Positions 3,460 through 52,776 of a DNA stretch of 64,000 nt are shown here, piece by piece (the stretch's first letter is position 1; every line of letters starts with the position of its first letter). The translations under genes and the position numbers were made by a program. The notes under the pieces were generated by a model, which had not been told where the DNA came from, made no database searches, and saw only the letters and a list, made by a program, of their open reading frames with translations. The stretch comes from an uncultured Methanosarcinales archaeon (lineage in GTDB: Archaea > Nanobdellota > Nanobdellia > Woesearchaeales > GW2011-AR9): assembly GCA_964527395.1 (NCBI GenBank), contig CAZGQD010000003.1:29124-93123 (forward strand). The letters are read 5' to 3'.

Positions 3460-6400
3460 TTAATCCAAATCTTTAATACTCTTTAGAATGTCATCGGCTT
3501 TGCCTTTCTTTTCTTTTACTGCAGTTGGGCTTGAACCGCCGTGCCAAGTGAACCTTGGACGCATTTGGATTGGGAAAAGACGTTCGTTGTTATCATCGAA
3601 AAGGATTGCTGCTCCTTTTTGTCTTGGAAGATTGTTTAATTCTACATCAAGACCAGTTCGCATATAACTTTGCATCAGAAGTCCTAGGGCCTCAACATCC
3701 ATTTTAGCTGTAAGTCTGTGGCTTAGGACAATGTCAGATTGAGTCATTACGTCAGTGTGGATCTTTCCTGGCTGTTGTGTTGCTAGTATGAGGGAGATAC
3801 CTGGTTGGCGACCTTCTCTTAAGATTGTGATTAATGGGTCACTTGCAGCAGTTTTACCTTCTCTAGGGAGGAGTTCGTGGCAATTGTGTGCAATTACGCC
3901 ATTTGCTATGAAATTGTGGTTTTGATTTACAGTGATATCGAAGAGTGGTTCAGCTGATTTTGTGGTTCTTTTTTGAATTTTTTCGTAAAAGATATTGTTT
4001 TTTAGTCTTTCTTTAATCCATTTGTCGAAGTTTGGAAAGGATTGGGGCATAGAAACACCACTATTTTTATAAATCCAATCTCTTACTTGGTAACTAGGAA
4101 TATTTAGTTCTTTTGCTATTTTTATTTTTCCCCAGCCAGTTTTTTCTCTGATTTGGAAAGCTTTTTTTCTTAAGTTTTCTCTTTGATTTAAGACGTATTT
4201 TCTGGCTTTAAGGTATTCTAACCATAAAAATCCTGTTTTTTGTTTGATTGAGCAATATCTGTAGCCAACTTTTTCTAAGTATTTTATGGTGTTGTCTACG
4301 CTTTTTGCTAAGGTTATGACTAGTTTAATTGATTTAGTTCCATCTTTTCTGATATTGCCTCTTCTTTGTTTGATTTGGCTGACTTTGATATTAAGGTCTG
4401 AGAAGAGTTTTTTAAGTTGATCAGTGTATTCAACTCCGTTTTCTGTTAGTTCTATGTGTTTATTGCATGAGAATCTGATTGGATTAAAGTCTCCACCCCA
4501 TGTTTTTGATTGTGAAGGAGCCATGCCGTCTGCTCCGAATAATGCTGCTAAAAATTCTGCTTTTTCTTCTTTTGAAGCTTTAGTTAACCATTTTGGAATT
4601 AGCATTTTGATGTTTGTTTTGCTTCCAACTGGAGCCCCTAATTTTTTGAAGTAGTCAAAAGTTTTAGCACTGGCGTTTATTGAGTGACTAGTTCCGTTTA
4701 CTGTTGCAGTTTTTCCTGAGACGTGGGTGATTTTAGAGCTTGTTTTTCTAGAATAGATGTTTGATGAAGTGAAACCTAGTGTTTTTAGGTCTTTTTTGAT
4801 CAAAAGTAGGTCATTTTTGTTTGATTTTCCACTAAAACCAACTTGTTTTGGATTATTACTTAGCCATCCATCTCCGAAAATGTGGCCTAGTAATCTTGCT
4901 CTGATTAGTTTTTTGTCTTGTTTATTTGGGATATTTGTAGGGATTGCAAGTTCTTTAGCATCTTTAGTTTCTTGGAAACCTTTTTTTGTGAATAGTTTGT
5001 GGTCTTCTGTGCATTTTATCTTTCTTCCAGTTTCAGTTGTTAGTTCTATTAGTTGTCTTTTTGGTTTTTTGTAGCTTTTAGTGATATTTTGGAATTCGAA
5101 GTCTTTTGTTTTTTGATTATAGCTCCAGGCTTTTAGTTTTTCTTTATTTTCTACTTTTTTTGTGATTTGTTTTATTGTTAATGTGCCTTGATCTGTAATA
5201 ATTGGGGTGTTTGCAGGGAAACATTCATCTATTGCGAGCCAAACCAAAGGGTCTTGTTGTTTTTCTTTTGTTTCTTTACTAAAATAATGCATTGCTTTGT
5301 CAACACTTTGGAATTCTTCAGATTTTCTGGAAAGCATTCTTTCTTGGAAGAGACGTTTACAGACGAGGCCAGCTACCATGGCTTTAATTTCCCAACCAGA
5401 AGGCATGGTTGCGTATGGACTTACATCTAAAACTGTTACCTGACCACCTTTAACAATGTCTTTTAATGGAGTTCCGTCTTTAGAGAATATTTTCCAGCCT
5501 TTGGCTTTTTCAAATGTGTTAATTACAACAGATTTAGTCACTTTTTGCGCTTCTTTGTCTGCTTTTGTTTGTTCTATTAGGTAATCTATTTCATAAGGTT
5601 CACCTTTATTGTTGGTGTTTAGAACTATTTTGCTGATAAGAACTCCTTCTGCAGTGTTTGATTCAATTTTGAAGGTTTCTAGCCAATCTTCTGGACCAAC
5701 GTCTAAAGGGCTGATTGAGAAAGGAAAGTCAGTAGGAATGCCTTCCTCTTTGTATTTGTAATAGAATCCTGATGGTGTGTAGATTTTCACATCTAGTGAT
5801 TTAGGGTCGAATCCCCATTTTTTAAGGAGTGGGGCATCTTGGTAATTTGGATATTTCATTGTCCAGTAAATACCCATTGTATCGAAAAGGACAATTGAGA
5901 GGTTTTGCTTTACTTCTTTTGGAAGGTCAGCTAAACCTTCAGCGATGGAACCCATGGTGTATGAGTTGTGGACTATAATGTTGTTTGCGATGAAGTTGTG
6001 AGTGTTTGGAACAGTTAAGTCGTATACTTCAAAATTTCCTTCTAAAAGTTCTATTTTGGTGATTTGGTCCCAGATTGCTTCTGAGTTTTGTTTTGATTCT
6101 TTTGGAACTGCAATTTGAGTTTGAATTGGAAGAGTTTGAGCAGCTTGCCAACCTTTTTTTGTTAGAAGTGGGTGCTCAGGAGTTAATTTTATTTGTTTAT
6201 TTGATTTTAGAGTAAGTTTTAGAAGAGTTTTAACTTCTCTTTGATAGAAATGAGTGAAAACAGTTGGGGTGATTTGGTTGTTTTTGTTTAGAGTGAGGAT
6301 TTTTGTTTTGTTTTCTTGGCCTTCTAAATTTTTGATTTTTACTTGTTCTCCACTGTCTAGTTGGATTAAAGTGTCACCATGAAGGCATTTTCCGCTACCT

Positions 6401-6573
6401 CTTTTCCCGCAAAGAAAGATTACGTGGGCTCCTGCAACGTCTAAATAAACTGGATTAGAAAGAGCAGTGGTTTGACCCATCTTTACGAACTGTTTTGCTA
6501 TGAAAATAGTTCCTCTTTTACCGTATTTTTTTACGTCATGTTTACTTCGTCCAATGATCACATCAAAAGCCAT
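3460..6573 (-). CDS. HerA/FtsK-like DUF87 P-loop ATPase interrupted by two inteins (extein about 449 aa)
   Basis: After removing the inteins: N-terminal barrel-like region, Walker A GKRGSGK|S split by intein 1, Walker-B-like LVWLAIDE immediately before intein 2, and a C-terminal LREGRQPGISLILATQQP segment resembling HerA (IAREGRKFGVGLTIVSQRP) and FtsK (GIHLVLATQRP). Confidence 0.65.
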   Translation of the reverse strand: MAFDVIIGRSKHDVKKYGKRGTIFIAKQFVKMGQTTALSNPVYLDVAGAHVIFLCGKRGSGKCLHGDTLIQLDSGEQVKIKNLEGQENKTKILTLNKNNQITPTVFTHFYQREVKTLLKLTLKSNKQIKLTPEHPLLTKKGWQAAQTLPIQTQIAVPKESKQNSEAIWDQITKIELLEGNFEVYDLTVPNTHNFIANNIIVHNSYTMGSIAEGLADLPKEVKQNLSIVLFDTMGIYWTMKYPNYQDAPLLKKWGFDPKSLDVKIYTPSGFYYKYKEEGIPTDFPFSISPLDVGPEDWLETFKIESNTAEGVLISKIVLNTNNKGEPYEIDYLIEQTKADKEAQKVTKSVVINTFEKAKGWKIFSKDGTPLKDIVKGGQVTVLDVSPYATMPSGWEIKAMVAGLVCKRLFQERMLSRKSEEFQSVDKAMHYFSKETKEKQQDPLVWLAIDECFPANTPIITDQGTLTIKQITKKVENKEKLKAWSYNQKTKDFEFQNITKSYKKPKRQLIELTTETGRKIKCTEDHKLFTKKGFQETKDAKELAIPTNIPNKQDKKLIRARLLGHIFGDGWLSNNPKQVGFSGKSNKNDLLLIKKDLKTLGFTSSNIYSRKTSSKITHVSGKTATVNGTSHSINASAKTFDYFKKLGAPVGSKTNIKMLIPKWLTKASKEEKAEFLAALFGADGMAPSQSKTWGGDFNPIRFSCNKHIELTENGVEYTDQLKKLFSDLNIKVSQIKQRRGNIRKDGTKSIKLVITLAKSVDNTIKYLEKVGYRYCSIKQKTGFLWLEYLKARKYVLNQRENLRKKAFQIREKTGWGKIKIAKELNIPSYQVRDWIYKNSGVSMPQSFPNFDKWIKERLKNNIFYEKIQKRTTKSAEPLFDITVNQNHNFIANGVIAHNCHELLPREGKTAASDPLITILREGRQPGISLILATQQPGKIHTDVMTQSDIVLSHRLTAKMDVEALGLLMQSYMRTGLDVELNNLPRQKGAAILFDDNNERLFPIQMRPRFTWHGGSSPTAVKEKKGKADDILKSIKDLD
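3883..5223 (-). mobile_element. large intein (447 aa) with a LAGLIDADG-type homing endonuclease domain
   Basis: Begins CFPANTPIITDQGT after the Walker-B-like DE and ends NGVIAHN followed by Cys. An internal LLGHIFGDGW block matches LAGLIDADG. Confidence 0.7.
5965..6387 (-). mobile_element. mini-intein (141 aa, no endonuclease domain) inserted in the P-loop of the ATPase
   Basis: Begins CLHGDT directly after GSGK and ends IVHN followed by Ser (+1 nucleophile). Flanking extein residues reconstitute GKRGSGKS. Confidence 0.7.
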
Positions 6574-20091: not shown

Positions 20092-21207
20092 ATGGCAGGA
20101 AAAGCAAGTGCAGGGAAAGGAGCAAAGGTTGATGTAGTAAAAAAGATTCAAGATGTTGCTAAAGGTATCTATGATGATGTTCTTTTGCTTAAAAAGCCAG
20201 ATTTAGTTATGCCAATTAGGTCGCTTAGTAATGTAGCTTATAACGAAAAGGATGGGTATTTTCAGATACTTAGTAAAGTTAAAACTCGTACGCTTTCTGC
20301 TACTACAATCAAGACTTTTGCACAGACTCTTAGAATGATGGGTCTTTCTAAAGATTTGATTAAAGGAAAAGATCTTGCAACTAAAAGAGAGGCTTATTAT
20401 GTTTCCAAAAACTGGGGAGATGCTAGGTTCAAAGAACAGCCGGAGTCAGATACAGTAATGGATGATATCGAAGCTATGATGCGAGTTAATCGTGAACAAA
20501 TTGGCTTTGTACCTGAGGAGAAAGGTGGAGCTGTTGCTGGTGCACTTACAGTTATTGATAAAGATTCAGAGACAGGAGAGAAGCTTGAGATTGATTGTAC
20601 CAAATTTGGTTCAGGTGCTTATTCGGTTCCTTCATCAGTAGAGCATTTATCGTTTAAAACAAAAGCAAAGTTTGTACTTGCTATTGAAACATCAGGTATG
20701 TTTGAGAGGCTCAATAAGCATAAGTATTGGAGAAAAGCGAATTGTATTTTGATTTCAATGGGAGGAGTACCAACTCGTGCTTGTAGACGGTTTATTCGTA
20801 AATTGTCTGATGAAAAGGATCTTCCTGTATATGTATTTACGGACGGGGACCCCTACGGTTTTTTCTCAATATATCGAACACTTCGTGTTGGGTCAGGTAA
20901 TGCAGCTCACATAAATGAGTTCTTTTGTGTACCTAGAGCTAGGTTTTTAGGAGTAACTCCGCAAGACATTGTTGATTATAATCTTCCTACTCATCCTCTT
21001 AAAGATGTGGATTACAAAAAAATTAAGGATGTTTTGAAAAATGATCCATTCTGTAAACAACATAAAGAGTGGCAAAAAGCTCTTGCGCAAATGGTTAAGA
21101 TGAAGGTAAGAGTTGAGCAGCAGGCGTTTTCTGCAAAGGGATTGAACTACGTTTTAGAGACTTATTTGCCTGAAAAGATTGCTAACCCTAAGAAATGGCT
21201 GCCTTAG
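20092..21207 (+). CDS. top6A: DNA topoisomerase VI subunit A (Spo11-type)
   Basis: TOPRIM region VYVFTDGDPYGFFSIYRTLRVGSGN and upstream 5Y-CAP region. Start set at MAGKASAGKG, which follows the GC-rich leader. Confidence 0.9.
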   Translation: MAGKASAGKGAKVDVVKKIQDVAKGIYDDVLLLKKPDLVMPIRSLSNVAYNEKDGYFQILSKVKTRTLSATTIKTFAQTLRMMGLSKDLIKGKDLATKREAYYVSKNWGDARFKEQPESDTVMDDIEAMMRVNREQIGFVPEEKGGAVAGALTVIDKDSETGEKLEIDCTKFGSGAYSVPSSVEHLSFKTKAKFVLAIETSGMFERLNKHKYWRKANCILISMGGVPTRACRRFIRKLSDEKDLPVYVFTDGDPYGFFSIYRTLRVGSGNAAHINEFFCVPRARFLGVTPQDIVDYNLPTHPLKDVDYKKIKDVLKNDPFCKQHKEWQKALAQMVKMKVRVEQQAFSAKGLNYVLETYLPEKIANPKKWLP

Positions 21208-22312
21208 GTTGATTAAAATTGTTTACTAAAGATTTTAATCTTTCTTTCTTGTGAGGATATCTGAAGCCAATTTCTTTTTGATATAAGGCGATTTGAGATC
21301 TGCTTTTTATTTCTAATGTATAATAATCGTAGTTGTTGCTATGTTTTTTGTAGAGGTTGAAATTTATGTTTAGTTGTTTTAGAATTTCTTGGATTTCTAA
21401 TAGAATGCCTTTACTTGATTGAGACAAACCAATTACAGGATATTTTTGTTTGTCAATTTTGTTACACCAACCATCTCCATCGAAGAACCCAATAATAAAT
21501 TGTTTTTTTAGGTTCATAGGAGCTTTTTGGATAAGTTTAGGGATTTTTAGTCTTCCTTTTTTGTATCCTGCTGGCATTTCGAATACGTTGTTTAGAAGTC
21601 TGTGTAACATCATACTGGTAAAAAGAAGTCTATACCATCTTCCATTGTAAACTGTTTTTACATTTGTTTTTAAGTTGAATTCTTGTTTTAGTATGTGAAG
21701 AAGAGTTTCTAGAGTGTTTTTCTTTTCATCAGTGACGGTTATTTCCCAGCGAAACCTTTTTTCTTGTTTGTATGTTAAGTTTATGTTTCTTAAAGAACCG
21801 TCTGCGTATAGAATACCTAGGAAGTATGCTAAATCTTCTGTTAGTGTTTTTGGGATTTTGATTATTAATGGAGAGTTCATTGCTCTGAAAAATTTAGCTT
21901 GTTGGAAGCATTGGTTGTAGAGGTCTTTTTCTTCTTTTTTTGTTTTATGGCATTTTTGTTTCCAGAATTTGAGTAATATTTTGAGTTTTTTAATTGGAAT
22001 AGGATATTTTCCTTTTCTCCATGAGTAAAAAGTGGGAGTTGGTATGATTTTAATTAATTCTTTTTGGAATTGACCTTTAGGAATGTTTTGTTTAAGGTCA
22101 ATGTAGATGTCAGAGATGATATTTGAAATCCCATCTATGCATATTGGACTTTTGGTTACGTCGTCTATTTTTGGGTCAATTAGTTTGTTGAAGTAGTTGT
22201 TTATTTCCATGGTCTGAAGTCTTTGGAAAGCTTGCTTATAAGCGTTGTCCGCGCCTGTCCAGTGGGTTGTGGGTCGTCTTTTTAAGCATAGATTTTTGGA
22301 TTTTGAGCACAA
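21188..22312 (-). CDS. free-standing LAGLIDADG homing endonuclease (two LAGLIDADG motifs)
   Basis: LAYFLGILYADGSL and FIIGFFDGDGW motifs. Convergent with top6A, overlapping its stop codon on the opposite strand. Confidence 0.8.
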   Translation of the reverse strand: MCSKSKNLCLKRRPTTHWTGADNAYKQAFQRLQTMEINNYFNKLIDPKIDDVTKSPICIDGISNIISDIYIDLKQNIPKGQFQKELIKIIPTPTFYSWRKGKYPIPIKKLKILLKFWKQKCHKTKKEEKDLYNQCFQQAKFFRAMNSPLIIKIPKTLTEDLAYFLGILYADGSLRNINLTYKQEKRFRWEITVTDEKKNTLETLLHILKQEFNLKTNVKTVYNGRWYRLLFTSMMLHRLLNNVFEMPAGYKKGRLKIPKLIQKAPMNLKKQFIIGFFDGDGWCNKIDKQKYPVIGLSQSSKGILLEIQEILKQLNINFNLYKKHSNNYDYYTLEIKSRSQIALYQKEIGFRYPHKKERLKSLVNNFNQPKAAIS

Positions 22313-31618: not shown

Positions 31619-31761
31619 GGACCTGTAGCCTAGTCTGGATATGGTTAAAATTGGTTTTTTGCTGATTTTTTCTTAGGATTCATATGGCACCAGCCTTCTA
31701 GTTAGCATGAATTTGCTGATAAGACAGCTGGGGGTCGAGGGTTCGAATCCCTCCAGGTCCG
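31619..31761 (+). tRNA. tRNA-Arg(TCT) candidate with two introns, one in the D-loop region and one at 37/38 in the anticodon loop
   Basis: Acceptor ggacctg/caggtcc, U8-A9, T-arm gaggg-TTCGAAT-ccctc, anticodon stem ccagc/gctgg with loop ct-TCT-a interrupted by a ~25-nt insert, and a ~42-nt insert between the D-loop and the D-stem 3' strand. Confidence 0.5.
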
Positions 31762-31801
31762 CTCCTAACTTTTTTATAGTTGGGAAATTGAAGATAATTG
31801 T

Positions 31802-31934
31802 GCGTCCGTGGCTAAGCGGCTAAAGTTAGCGTCTTTTTGGCGTTATTAGCATGCGGTCCCCTGCAGAGGGACAGATCGTGGGAAGTATATAGAAAAATTC
31901 TGTGTACTCACGAATTCGAGTCCCACCGGGCGCT
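31802..31934 (+). tRNA. tRNA-Cys(GCA) candidate with two non-canonical introns, one near position 25/26 and one in the T-arm
   Basis: Acceptor gcgtccg/cgggcgc (one G-U), D-arm gcta-agcggctaaagt-tagc, anticodon arm gtccc-ctGCAga-gggac, and T-stem gtggg/cccac with a ~32-nt insert before the TTCGAGT loop. Confidence 0.45.
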
Positions 31935-42043: not shown

Positions 42044-42844
42044 TTGTTAATGGTAGAATTAGTTACTTTTGTTCTGGTTGTTTTTGTAGGTCTAATTACT
42101 GGTTTTGTTGATTCAGTTATTGGAGCAGGAGGATTGATATCAATACCTTTTTTGATTTTTACAGGAGTTCCGCCACAAGTTGCTATTGCAACAGACAAAT
42201 TTGGTCTGCTTGGGCATATATTTGGGTCTATCCCTAAGTTTTGGAAGGAGAAAAAGATTGTTTGGAAATATGTCCCTTTGTTGTCTTTGTTGGGGATAAT
42301 TGGAGGGTATATTGGAACTAAGATAATAATTAGTGTGAATGAGGCTGCTTTGACAAAAGTTGTTGGGTTTGCTATCTTGTTTTTGTTGCCAGTTGTGTTT
42401 TTTAAGAAAGATTTAGGTTTGATTAAAAAGAAAGTTTCTAATTTGAAGAAAATAATTAGGTACTAGGAAATCGAGGATTTCCTGTACAGGAAAGCTTCGC
42501 TTTCCTTGTATCCGTTGTATTTACTTGCAATGATTTTTGGAGCGTCTATAAGTGCAGGATCAGGACCTATAGTGTTATTGTTTCTAGTATCTTTTTTTGG
42601 TTTAACTTTTATTCAAGCAAATGCAACAGATCAAATATCTTGGTTTTTTTTGTCTATTGTATCTTTGATAGTGTTTGGAATCAATGGTTTGATTGATTTT
42701 TGGCTTGGAATTGCAATATTGATAGGAATGAGTATTGGAGGTTACTATGATGTGAAAGTTGCTGTTAATAAAGGGAATGTTTGGGTTAGAAAGGCATTTG
42801 TAGTGGTTGTGGTATTGTCTGGGTTGAAATTGTTGTTTTTGTAG
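42044..42844 (+). pseudogene. TauE/SafE (DUF81) family anion permease interrupted by a single in-frame TAG at 42464-42466; pseudogene or read-through/recoding candidate
   Basis: ORF 42044-42466 (N-terminal repeat, GAGGLISIPFL) and ORF 42506-42844 (C-terminal repeat, TTG start) are in the same frame, separated only by TAG plus 39 nt. The combined product would be ~265 aa, the usual TauE length. Confidence 0.55.
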
Positions 42845-45654: not shown

Positions 45655-46033
45655 GTAGATTACGCTAGGAAGCTGACGGTATCTTTATTGATGCTGAGGA
45701 AGGTCCGCCCACCGTAAATGAGCCTCCTTTTTAGGAGCTGGAGAAATTCAGGGCTCTGGAACAGAAACGACACGTCCTAAGTCTAGGCACTTAAAAACAC
45801 TTTGTGTTTTTAGGGCCAGAAAATCATATGATTTTCTTGGAATGATATGTGTGAAGCTTTGCGTGAGTGAAGGGAGTTAATCACTTGACTGTTTGAAACT
45901 TAGGGAACGATGAAACGGCGAAACCGCTCTGGTGCAAGTCTTTGACGCTTAGTCGAATGCTTCCAAATGCTTATCGGTAGTACTTTATTGTGCTGCTTTG
46001 GAGTATACAGAAGGTGGCCTATTGCGTGACTAC
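45655..46033 (+). ncRNA. rnpB: RNase P RNA candidate
   Basis: GC-rich island in an AT-rich region. 5' block GAGGAAGGTCCGCCCACC resembles P4 GAGGAAAGUCCGGGCUCC, internal ACAGAAACGACACG is present, 3' block ACAGAAGGTGGCCTATTGCG resembles ACAGAACCCGGCUUAUCG, and the terminal gcgtgactac/gtagattacgc can pair as P1. Confidence 0.55.
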
Positions 46034-51537: not shown

Positions 51538-52776
51538 TTATATCTGGTAATTGAGCTTTTTTAGGTCCATTAGGATTAATTCTTGGATTAGATATTCAAA
51601 TTCTAGGTCGTTTCTTTCGTTAGATTTTTTAGTTAGGTTTAGATATTGATCGAAGTAGCCTAAAGGAAAGTCTAAGATTGGAATTTTGTGATTTCTTAAA
51701 ATGTGAAACATTAGTAGTCTTGAAGTTCTACTATTACCATCATTAAAAGGGTGAATTCTTTGAAATTCGTTATGGAAAAATGCAGCGAAGGAGATAATTC
51801 TTTTAAGATCATTTGAGGTTTTGTTTTTTTCTTTTTTGAATTCATCATAAAGAGTAAGGAGATGGTCTAGTTTTTGGCTTATCTGTTGCCAAGCTGCTGT
51901 TTTGAAATTAGGGTTACCTTTGATTCTGACGTCATGTTTTCTGATTTCTCCTGCACCAAAAGTGTGGTACATAGCTGTTTTGTGGTAGATTAGAATAAGT
52001 TCTTTGGTGATTGTTTTGTTGTTGTTTGCATTTTCTAGCATTAGGTCTACTGCTTTTTTGTAGTTCATTAATTCTTGAATGTTATTCGCAGTGTAATTAG
52101 AAATGCTCTGTCCAGTTAGGATCTTTTGAGTGTCAGGTAAGGTTAAAGGGTTTCCTTCTAAACTTAAACTTTGATGGATGAAAGAGATTTGGGATTTTTC
52201 TTCTAATTTGAATAAATCTATATTATCTTGCTTCTTTATTTTTTTGTATTTAGATAATTCTTTTTTAATTAAAGGAATGATGTCTTGTCTTTTAGTTTGA
52301 TCAAAAGTATTGTCTTTTTTGTGATATTTAAGAAGGTTTTTTAGGAAGTTGTTTTCTAAGAGTTTTGCTTTTAGTGGCTTTTTACTAAATATTAAAACAA
52401 ATCCATATTTTGCTAAGGTGTTGGTATAGTCTGTGAATGTTTTTTGGCTGATGTCTGTACTGTTAGAGTAGAAATATTCTCTAGGAGCTATGTCTAAAAT
52501 GAAATTGATAACTGATTCTTTTAATAAGAAATTGTATGAAAGGTTGTTTTTAATACAAAAATGGATAATGTTGTAAAGATCTTGGCTTTTTTTAGAGTTG
52601 ATTACTTGGAAAGTTTTGTTTTTCTTTGAGATTAGTTTGTTTTTTTTAAGTTCTGAGATGTGATTGTAGATAGAGTTGTAGCTACTTTTTCTTTCTCCTA
52701 GGTATTTATTGATATTAGAAATAGTGCAAGTGCCTTTTCTAGCAATTATGTAAAAAATGTCATATTCTGATACCAT
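51538..52776 (-). CDS. Fic/Doc family protein with N-terminal HTH-like extension
   Basis: Fic motif variant HPFNDGNSRTSR within a 412-aa protein. Confidence 0.75.
   Translation of the reverse strand: MVSEYDIFYIIARKGTCTISNINKYLGERKSSYNSIYNHISELKKNKLISKKNKTFQVINSKKSQDLYNIIHFCIKNNLSYNFLLKESVINFILDIAPREYFYSNSTDISQKTFTDYTNTLAKYGFVLIFSKKPLKAKLLENNFLKNLLKYHKKDNTFDQTKRQDIIPLIKKELSKYKKIKKQDNIDLFKLEEKSQISFIHQSLSLEGNPLTLPDTQKILTGQSISNYTANNIQELMNYKKAVDLMLENANNNKTITKELILIYHKTAMYHTFGAGEIRKHDVRIKGNPNFKTAAWQQISQKLDHLLTLYDEFKKEKNKTSNDLKRIISFAAFFHNEFQRIHPFNDGNSRTSRLLMFHILRNHKIPILDFPLGYFDQYLNLTKKSNERNDLEFEYLIQELILMDLKKLNYQI

Follow-up and report, generated by a model that had tools for sequence, protein, structure and literature searches.

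Background

Archaeal tRNA genes with several introns, among them non-canonical introns bordered by bulge-helix-bulge (BHB) motifs, have been described in Thermoproteales, Korarchaeum, Nanoarchaeum, ARMAN and others (PMC4033280, PMC5829648). In Thermoproteales as in other Crenarchaeota (Sugahara et al. 2008; PMC4033280), multiple-intron genes contain at least two short introns each, spliced by proteins and located at 37/38 and at non-canonical sites in the D and T arms. The motifs are strict or relaxed BHBs. That intron number varies between related lineages points to recent gain. The two neighboring genes reported here, for tRNA-Arg(UCU) and tRNA-Cys(GCA), resemble them in each of these respects. 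There are also two differences. Firstly, the crenarchaeal hosts are hyperthermophilic, whereas ours is a mesophilic marine DPANN archaeon with AT-rich DNA (about 34% G+C in the window, i.e. in the whole stretch of 64,000 nucleotides that was analyzed). Secondly, we see no intron similarity that would suggest large-scale transposition, just a shared 9-mer.

Comparable systems are found within the same superphylum: ARMAN-1/2 with an epsilon2 form of the endonuclease EndA, Nanoarchaeum equitans with an (alpha-beta)2 form, and Pacearchaeota and Woesearchaeota with an L3-loop alpha4 form (PMC3239211, PMC5829648). They share with our locus non-canonical as well as multiple introns, and disrupted tRNAs that have escaped detection are expected there (PMC3239211, PMC5829648). 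DPANN genomes, including those of Pacearchaeota and Woesearchaeota, show increased tRNA gene disruption together with loop-bearing EndA (PMC5829648). However, we found no published description of the present genes, of their intron positions, or of a series of relatives with zero, one and two introns at a single syntenic locus.

Another similar case is tRNA-Thr(GGU) of Caldiarchaeum subterraneum, whose relatives differ in intron number, again read as recent gain (PMC3293823). In that species, the gain has been linked to a mobile element of 1.8 kb that encodes a recombinase, and to the splitting of genes, whereas no such element is present in or adjoining the tRNA genes of the window. What we describe is a phenomenon known in archaea and not a new mechanism.

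Results and Discussion

The locus and its host

Judging by an archaeal RNase P RNA (45656-46032, + strand, 132 bits in Rfam), topoisomerase VI, a RIO kinase and the labels of the closest proteins, the host is an archaeon. The ORFs of the window include topoisomerase VI A and B, RIO1 and KH/KRR1 proteins. Because the closest proteins carry the labels Nanoarchaeota, Woesearchaeota or Nanoarchaeia, we consider the host to be an uncultured marine member of the DPANN archaea. Contigs of the organism itself were recovered in marine metagenome assemblies, from oxygen-minimum-zone samples. At least four independent metagenome assemblies contain the locus in identical form, and the population variants L001 and L004 show a single difference from the window in 7.1 kb, namely 31723 G>A.

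The initial annotation had placed here adjacent genes for tRNA-Arg(TCT) and tRNA-Cys(GCA) with two inserts each (Table 1), and had warned that standard finders may miss them. Calls on the spliced products and gaps against orthologues establish the genes, and the behavior of the programs agrees with the warning. ARAGORN finds no tRNA gene in the raw 64-kb window, so both are overlooked. The Rfam tRNA model matches the whole tRNA-Arg gene on the + strand with 46.4 bits, where the gathering score is 29 and E, calculated over the entire window, is about 1e-6. Some 50 nt of the D loop and 27 nt of the anticodon loop are left unaligned as inserts. The same model gives no match to the tRNA-Cys gene even at E <= 10. 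With its intron option, ARAGORN reports a spurious intron of 49 nt in the tRNA-Arg gene, which it names tRNA-Ala(agc), and takes the tRNA-Cys gene of a relative (L005, see below) for tRNA-Gln; both calls were rejected. No further hidden tRNAs were found by a whole-window Rfam search at E <= 1, by a scan for T arm plus acceptor, or in 8 kb of additional contig. Metagenome-assembled genomes of this clade will therefore seem to lack tRNA-Cys and tRNA-Arg(UCU), and their completeness and decoding capacity will be misjudged.

Each gene is preceded by a TATA-like box (Table 1). The position of the upstream box fits an archaeal promoter; in an AT-rich genome this is weak evidence. T runs occur 3´ of both genes, and CCA is not encoded. 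The T run between the genes, which overlaps the second TATA-like box, is a possible terminator of tRNA-Arg.

Table 1. Positions of the two tRNA genes, their exons and introns, and neighboring elements. Positions refer to the window except where a locus of a relative (L number) is named.
Feature	Position	Strand	Description
TATA-like box TTTTTAATAA	31586..31595	+	centre about 28 nt 5´ of tRNA-Arg; read from sequence
tRNA-Arg(UCU) gene	31619..31761	+	3 exons, 2 introns; Rfam tRNA model, ARAGORN on spliced product, orthologue alignment
Arg exon 1	31619..31641	+	acceptor 5´ strand, D-stem 5´ strand, D loop to A21
Arg intron 1	31642..31684	+	43 nt, 26% G+C, about 21/22 (D loop / D-stem 3´ strand)
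Arg exon 2	31685..31700	+	D-stem 3´ strand, position 26, anticodon-stem 5´ strand, loop to A37 (TCT)
Arg intron 2	31701..31725	+	25 nt, canonical 37/38 site
Arg exon 3	31726..31761	+	A38, anticodon-stem 3´ strand, variable loop, T arm, acceptor 3´ strand, discriminator
T run overlapping TATA-like box TTTTTTATAG	31770..31779	+	centre about 27 nt 5´ of tRNA-Cys; read from sequence
tRNA-Cys(GCA) gene	31802..31934	+	3 exons, 2 introns; ARAGORN on spliced product, orthologue alignment
Cys exon 1	31802..31824	+	acceptor 5´ strand, D-stem 5´ strand, D loop, A22-A23 of D-stem 3´ strand
Cys intron 1	31825..31852	+	28 nt, 23/24, inside D-stem 3´ strand
Cys exon 2	31853..31882	+	G24-C25, G26, anticodon arm (GCA), variable loop, T-stem 5´ strand
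Cys intron 2	31883..31914	+	32 nt, 53/54 (T stem / T loop, G53/U54)
Cys exon 3	31915..31934	+	T loop (UUCGAGU), T-stem 3´ strand, acceptor 3´ strand, discriminator U
LAGLIDADG_3 ORF, window	21188-22312	-	adjoins topoisomerase VI A gene
LAGLIDADG_3 ORF, L005	4343-5185	-	
LAGLIDADG_3 ORF, L007	2834-3619	-	
LAGLIDADG_3 ORF, L013	1-580		
LAGLIDADG_3 ORF, L015	1818-2567		

Insert positions and spliced products

The inserts were defined without recourse to motifs, by MAFFT alignment of the unspliced genes with intronless syntenic orthologues (from L007, L012-L016 and L018); junction motifs were then scored at the positions obtained, their significance being given as P from intron shuffles. All four alignment gaps coincide with the proposed intron sites. 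In tRNA-Arg, a 43-nt gap appears against five orthologues and a 25-nt gap, directly after position 37, against the intronless ones. In tRNA-Cys, the gaps measure 28 nt (against seven intronless orthologues) and 32 nt (against all eight orthologues). The Arg inserts thus lie where the initial annotation had put them, at the boundary of D loop and D stem and at 37/38, and so does the Cys insert between T stem and T loop; the other Cys insert, formerly assigned to 25/26, belongs at 23/24. The description of all four positions as non-canonical applies to three of them, since Arg 37/38 is the canonical site.

Removal of the introns restores two regular tRNAs. ARAGORN calls the spliced products tRNA-Arg(tct), of 75 nt, and tRNA-Cys(gca), of 73 nt, and assigns a full cloverleaf to each; cloverleaf formation was one of the points named along with the original claim for judging it. 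Both align with their orthologues without gaps, tRNA-Arg with 60-65 of 75 identical positions and tRNA-Cys with 58-69 of 73, the highest value being that for the intronless L013 gene. Many of the differences are paired with each other (3/72 and 31/43 in tRNA-Arg; 12/23, 50/64 and 52/62 in tRNA-Cys), and most of them, though not all, are compensatory changes in stems. The discriminator is G (31761) in tRNA-Arg and U73 in tRNA-Cys, and the A13.A22 mismatch of the latter is kept in all orthologues.

The short introns of both genes are AT-rich: exons have 60-67% G+C and introns 26-39%, a contrast far beyond chance. The two precursors fold far more stably than shuffled sequences, with z = -4.3 and -4.7. 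At three of the four junction pairs (Arg 37/38, Cys 23/24 and Cys 53/54) there are BHB-type motifs that shuffles rarely match, and the central helices of three introns are seen in the minimum-free-energy fold. Adopting a BHB-compatible conformer would cost about 6-10 kcal/mol relative to the computed minimum free energy, a point against BHB splicing that we do not regard as decisive where the substrate is bound by an enzyme. In minimum-free-energy folding of the mature sequences, no cloverleaf was obtained for the D and anticodon arms. For unmodified tRNA sequences, a missing cloverleaf in the computed fold is usual, and we did not count it against the genes.

The exons are collinear and contiguous within 143 nt (Arg) and 133 nt (Cys), hence these are not split or permuted genes. 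Each collinear gene has two introns and at least one of them is non-canonical, as in the multiple-intron genes of other archaea. Self-splicing elements were also considered. The ribozyme core of a group I or group II intron comprises hundreds of nucleotides, compared with 25-43 nt for our inserts, and Rfam gives no intron match for them even at E <= 10. Another known kind of intron, exemplified by euryarchaeal tRNA-Trp, hosts a C/D box sRNA with C box RUGAUGA and D box CUGA and is about 50 nt long or more. None of our four introns (25-43 nt) contains RUGAUGA, and there is no Rfam snoRNA match above noise.

Introns of tRNA-Arg(UCU)

The 37/38 intron is bordered by a near-canonical BHB. Its helix h consists of the 5 bp of the anticodon stem, h´ has 6-7 bp, and the central helix H (CUUC/UAAG) contains 3 bp and a C.U mismatch between the bulges UA|G and AC|A. 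In shuffles, the motif h5/H3/h´6 is reached with P = 0.005. The single population variant mentioned above falls in this intron and affects the predicted partner of C32; the G>A change would weaken the BHB further, leaving two of four central pairs.

The D-loop intron is flanked by a 6-nt direct repeat ATATGG (31639-31644 and 31682-31687), which allows seven equivalent registers, with the 5´ splice site anywhere from 3 nt upstream to 3 nt downstream of the position in Table 1. Because the repeat is present at both junctions, the placement of this intron is exact only within the ambiguity it creates. The best register cuts after A21, giving 21/22. Here we see a relaxed hBH motif with h of 3 bp, H of 4 bp (UGGA/UUCA) and a strict 3´ bulge UA|U. 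The 5´ site falls within an internal loop, and a contiguous h´ is absent. The H helix and the unpaired 3´ bulge are present in the minimum-free-energy fold. BHB motifs, which had been expected at every junction, are accordingly clear at the other three sites and weak here: P(H>=4) in shuffles is 0.08, so the motif alone is not significant. As 8% of shuffles reach this H, the intron is established by homology and not by its motif.

It is conceivable that both genes are functional and that this one insert is processed otherwise than by a standard EndA cut at the proposed register. The cut could fall in another register of ATATGG (e.g. 19/20), it could take place only after removal of the 37/38 intron, or it could use an unconventional motif. 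Two registers indeed give H = 4, one after pre-tRNA position 20 (h2/H4/h´2) and the other after position 23 (h3/H4/h´0), and the 5´ site is not in a 3-nt bulge, as just noted. However, every register yields the same mature sequence, so that such a mechanism would differ just in detail, and archaeal EndA enzymes of broad specificity are known to accept relaxed hBH or bulge-helix-loop (BHL) motifs (PMC4033280, PMC5829648). We therefore hold this deviation to be unlikely.

As for the repeat itself, it could be an insertion footprint or a consequence of BHB pseudo-symmetry, as both bulges read UAU. There are also small similarities between introns. A 9-mer, TTTGCTGAT, is common to both Arg introns (31657-31665 and 31712-31720), GTTAGC starts both Arg intron 2 and Cys intron 1, and these two also have TTAGCAT in common. 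This sharing may be due to chance in AT-rich sequence. Apart from the 9-mer and the 7-mer, which are unconvincing, the introns show no similarity to each other or to the rest of the window and the fetched loci.

Introns of tRNA-Cys(GCA)

The mature D stem of tRNA-Cys is GCUA/AAGC, and its 12-23 pair covaries among orthologues, being U-A, C-G or A-U. The uninterrupted D arm can be read from the intronless L013 orthologue, GCUA-AGCGGCUA-AAGC-G. Seen against it, the first TTAGC of our gene is to be read as intron, not as D stem. The junctions of the 23/24 intron form an hBHBh´ motif with h of 2 bp (G17-C53, C16-G54), H of 4 bp (GCUA/UAGC), bulges AA|G and AU|G, and h´ of 7 bp following a U.U mismatch. 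The motif h2/H4/h´7 has a shuffle P of 0.0015.

Two other readings of this insert were rejected. The first treats the initial TTAGC as D stem and assumes an intron of 24 nt at 25/26. It provides no BHB at any of four registers; moreover, its TAGC is not conserved (TAAT in L005), and the intronless orthologues disagree with it. The second places the 5´ site after position 24 and starts the 3´ exon at 51 (H4/h´7). It leaves 2 extra nucleotides in comparison with orthologues and depends on an A22-U45 pair that L005 does not have.

At the 53/54 intron, we find H of 4 bp (CGUG/CACG), a strict 5´ bulge GG|A, h´ of 11 bp and a 3´ bulge AA|U. The outer helix has just 2 bp, offset by one nucleotide, and h was scored 0-2. 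The score of this motif is attained in intron shuffles with P = 5e-5, and H, the 5´ bulge and h´ are all present in the minimum-free-energy fold.

Relatives with fewer introns

Syntenic loci of relatives were fetched by means of the NFACT gene, which lies about 400 nt downstream of the tRNA pair. The Arg(TCT)-Cys(GCA) pair, or tRNA-Cys alone, is found upstream of NFACT in L005, L007, L010, L012 and L014-L018. In some relatives, an MFS gene stands between the tRNA(s) and NFACT, and in L013 tRNA-Cys is about 3.4 kb upstream, beyond three other genes. At most of these loci the Arg and Cys genes are intronless.

Intron number differs between relatives. L007, L015 and L016, whose NFACT is 42-46% identical to that of the window, have no intron in either gene. 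In L018 (40%) there is one intron in tRNA-Arg and none in tRNA-Cys, in L005 (63%) each gene has one, and in the window each has two. The Arg 37/38 site is occupied in both L005 (44 nt, H CUUC/GAAG with 4/4 pairs) and L018 (15 nt). L010 (NFACT 44%) adds a further variant: its tRNA-Cys gene (2576-2692, also in L011) contains a 44-nt intron at 59/60 with a full BHB h5/H4/h´3, and it is missed by Rfam (E <= 0.5) as well as by ARAGORN. This intron is independent of those in the window, and tRNA-Cys is interrupted at three different sites within the clade. A pattern scan of metagenomes for the Cys anticodon arm recovered just the L005 organism again, and a contig scan of genomes with the NFACT protein gave a single relative.

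The nearest relative, L005, is the most informative one. Its Cys 23/24 intron has the same position and length (28 nt) as ours, with H of 4/4 pairs and h´ of 9 bp, and the sequence of its hairpin is different. In the hairpins of the window and L005 taken together, 27 of 28 pair cells are paired. Seven of the eight h´ pairs differ between the two, all but one are paired in both, and two have changed on both sides. It is suggestive of pairing maintained through base changes; with two sequences, the comparison is not a statistical one.

By parsimony, this distribution suggests that the introns were gained recently, with the identity of a single protein serving as a rough proxy for phylogeny. Within the lineage, the number per gene would have risen from zero to one and then to two. 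A more specific version would have stepwise, recent and independent insertions (0+0, 1+0, 1+1 and 2+2 introns in Arg + Cys, and separately the 59/60 intron of L010), with ATATGG as the insertion footprint of the youngest intron, that of the Arg D loop. The repeat would then stem, for example, from duplication of the target site, or from a local duplication by which the pseudo-symmetric BHB came about. We offer this version as speculation, with the odds clearly against it. The 0/1/2 series and the three sites in tRNA-Cys provide a mesophilic marine example for the recent gain of non-canonical introns. If the stepwise reading is true, the clade would represent a natural system for studying the birth of archaeal tRNA introns outside Thermoproteales.

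In several relatives, free-standing ORFs with a LAGLIDADG_3 domain are located between the Arg and Cys tRNA genes or adjoin the pair (Table 1). An ORF of this type is present in the window as well, about 10 kb from the tRNAs. The Arg-Cys tRNA locus may be a hotspot for mobile elements.

Function and possible processing

Could one or both genes be decaying pseudogenes, their inserts being junk that is never removed, while functional copies reside elsewhere in the genome? The absence of a significant BHB at the Arg D-loop insert and the 6-nt direct repeat around it, which resembles an insertion footprint, point in this direction. Nevertheless, none of the exon stems or conserved tertiary positions is disrupted, comparison with orthologues shows compensatory changes, and three of the inserts carry motifs rarely reached in shuffles. 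In L005, where NFACT is 63% identical, the Cys 23/24 insert has the same position and length, and its structure is conserved. Archaeal genomes usually contain one gene per anticodon (PMC4307357), the pair fills a syntenic slot that is conserved and occupied by intact orthologues, and there are TATA-like boxes at about -27 of both genes. All this makes decay quite improbable. That AT-rich intergenic DNA resembles tRNAs by mere chance has in its favor solely the failure of ARAGORN and, for tRNA-Cys, of Rfam, and it is practically negligible given the Rfam E of about 1e-6 for tRNA-Arg, the 69/73 match of spliced tRNA-Cys to an intronless orthologue and the synteny with the Arg-Cys pair of relatives; the spliced calls and alignments already refute it.

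We are highly confident that these are two functional, independently promoted tRNA genes whose precursors each contain two short, BHB-type introns that would be spliced by proteins. Processing might proceed as follows. Each junction pair of the precursor would fold into a BHB or a relaxed variant of it, with a 4-bp central helix and 3-nt bulges on either side. EndA would cut each strand between the second and third nucleotide of the bulge, and an RtcB-type ligase would join the exons. Trimming by RNase P and RNase Z and addition of CCA would then lead to the 75-nt and 73-nt tRNAs.

Because three of the four introns are non-canonical and two motifs are relaxed, an enzyme of broad specificity is implied, in line with the initial annotation. 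From the literature, it is reasonable to expect that the endonuclease of this lineage accepts relaxed motifs: broad specificity has been described for (alpha-beta)2, epsilon2 and loop-bearing alpha4 forms of EndA, DPANN included (PMC5829648, PMC4033280, PMC3239211). No match to EndA (PF01974/PF02778) was found among the approximately 60 window ORFs, in the gene tables for the loci of relatives or in the 8-kb extension of the contig, and no RNA ligase gene is present in the window or the extension. The introns in the D and T arms fit the proposed co-evolution of EndA loop and tRNA disruption in DPANN (PMC5829648).

Other features of the window

Several minor observations were made elsewhere in the window. 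A 1037-aa ORF (3460-6573, - strand) has two stretches that match the intein splicing domain, along with Hint/Vint matches. A protein of the TauE/SafE sulfite-exporter family is encoded as two consecutive ORFs (42044-42466 and 42506-42844, + strand) that correspond to the N- and C-terminal halves of the Pfam domain; the arrangement may be a frameshift or a natural split. The RNase P RNA is 377 nt long, compared with 288 positions of the model, and probably contains an insertion.

The GC skew of the + strand is strongly positive, about +0.3 to +0.45, over most of 1-64000 and falls toward zero at - strand genes (e.g. 8-12 kb). Since it drops where genes are on the - strand, the skew tracks the coding strand. 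Finally, at least three genes with a Fic/DOC domain occur in about 72 kb of this small-genome archaeon (1987-2985 and 51538-52776, both on the - strand, and 18762-20003 of L019), and the same region includes ORFs with PIN, DUF6036 nucleotidyltransferase and RelA/SpoT domains.
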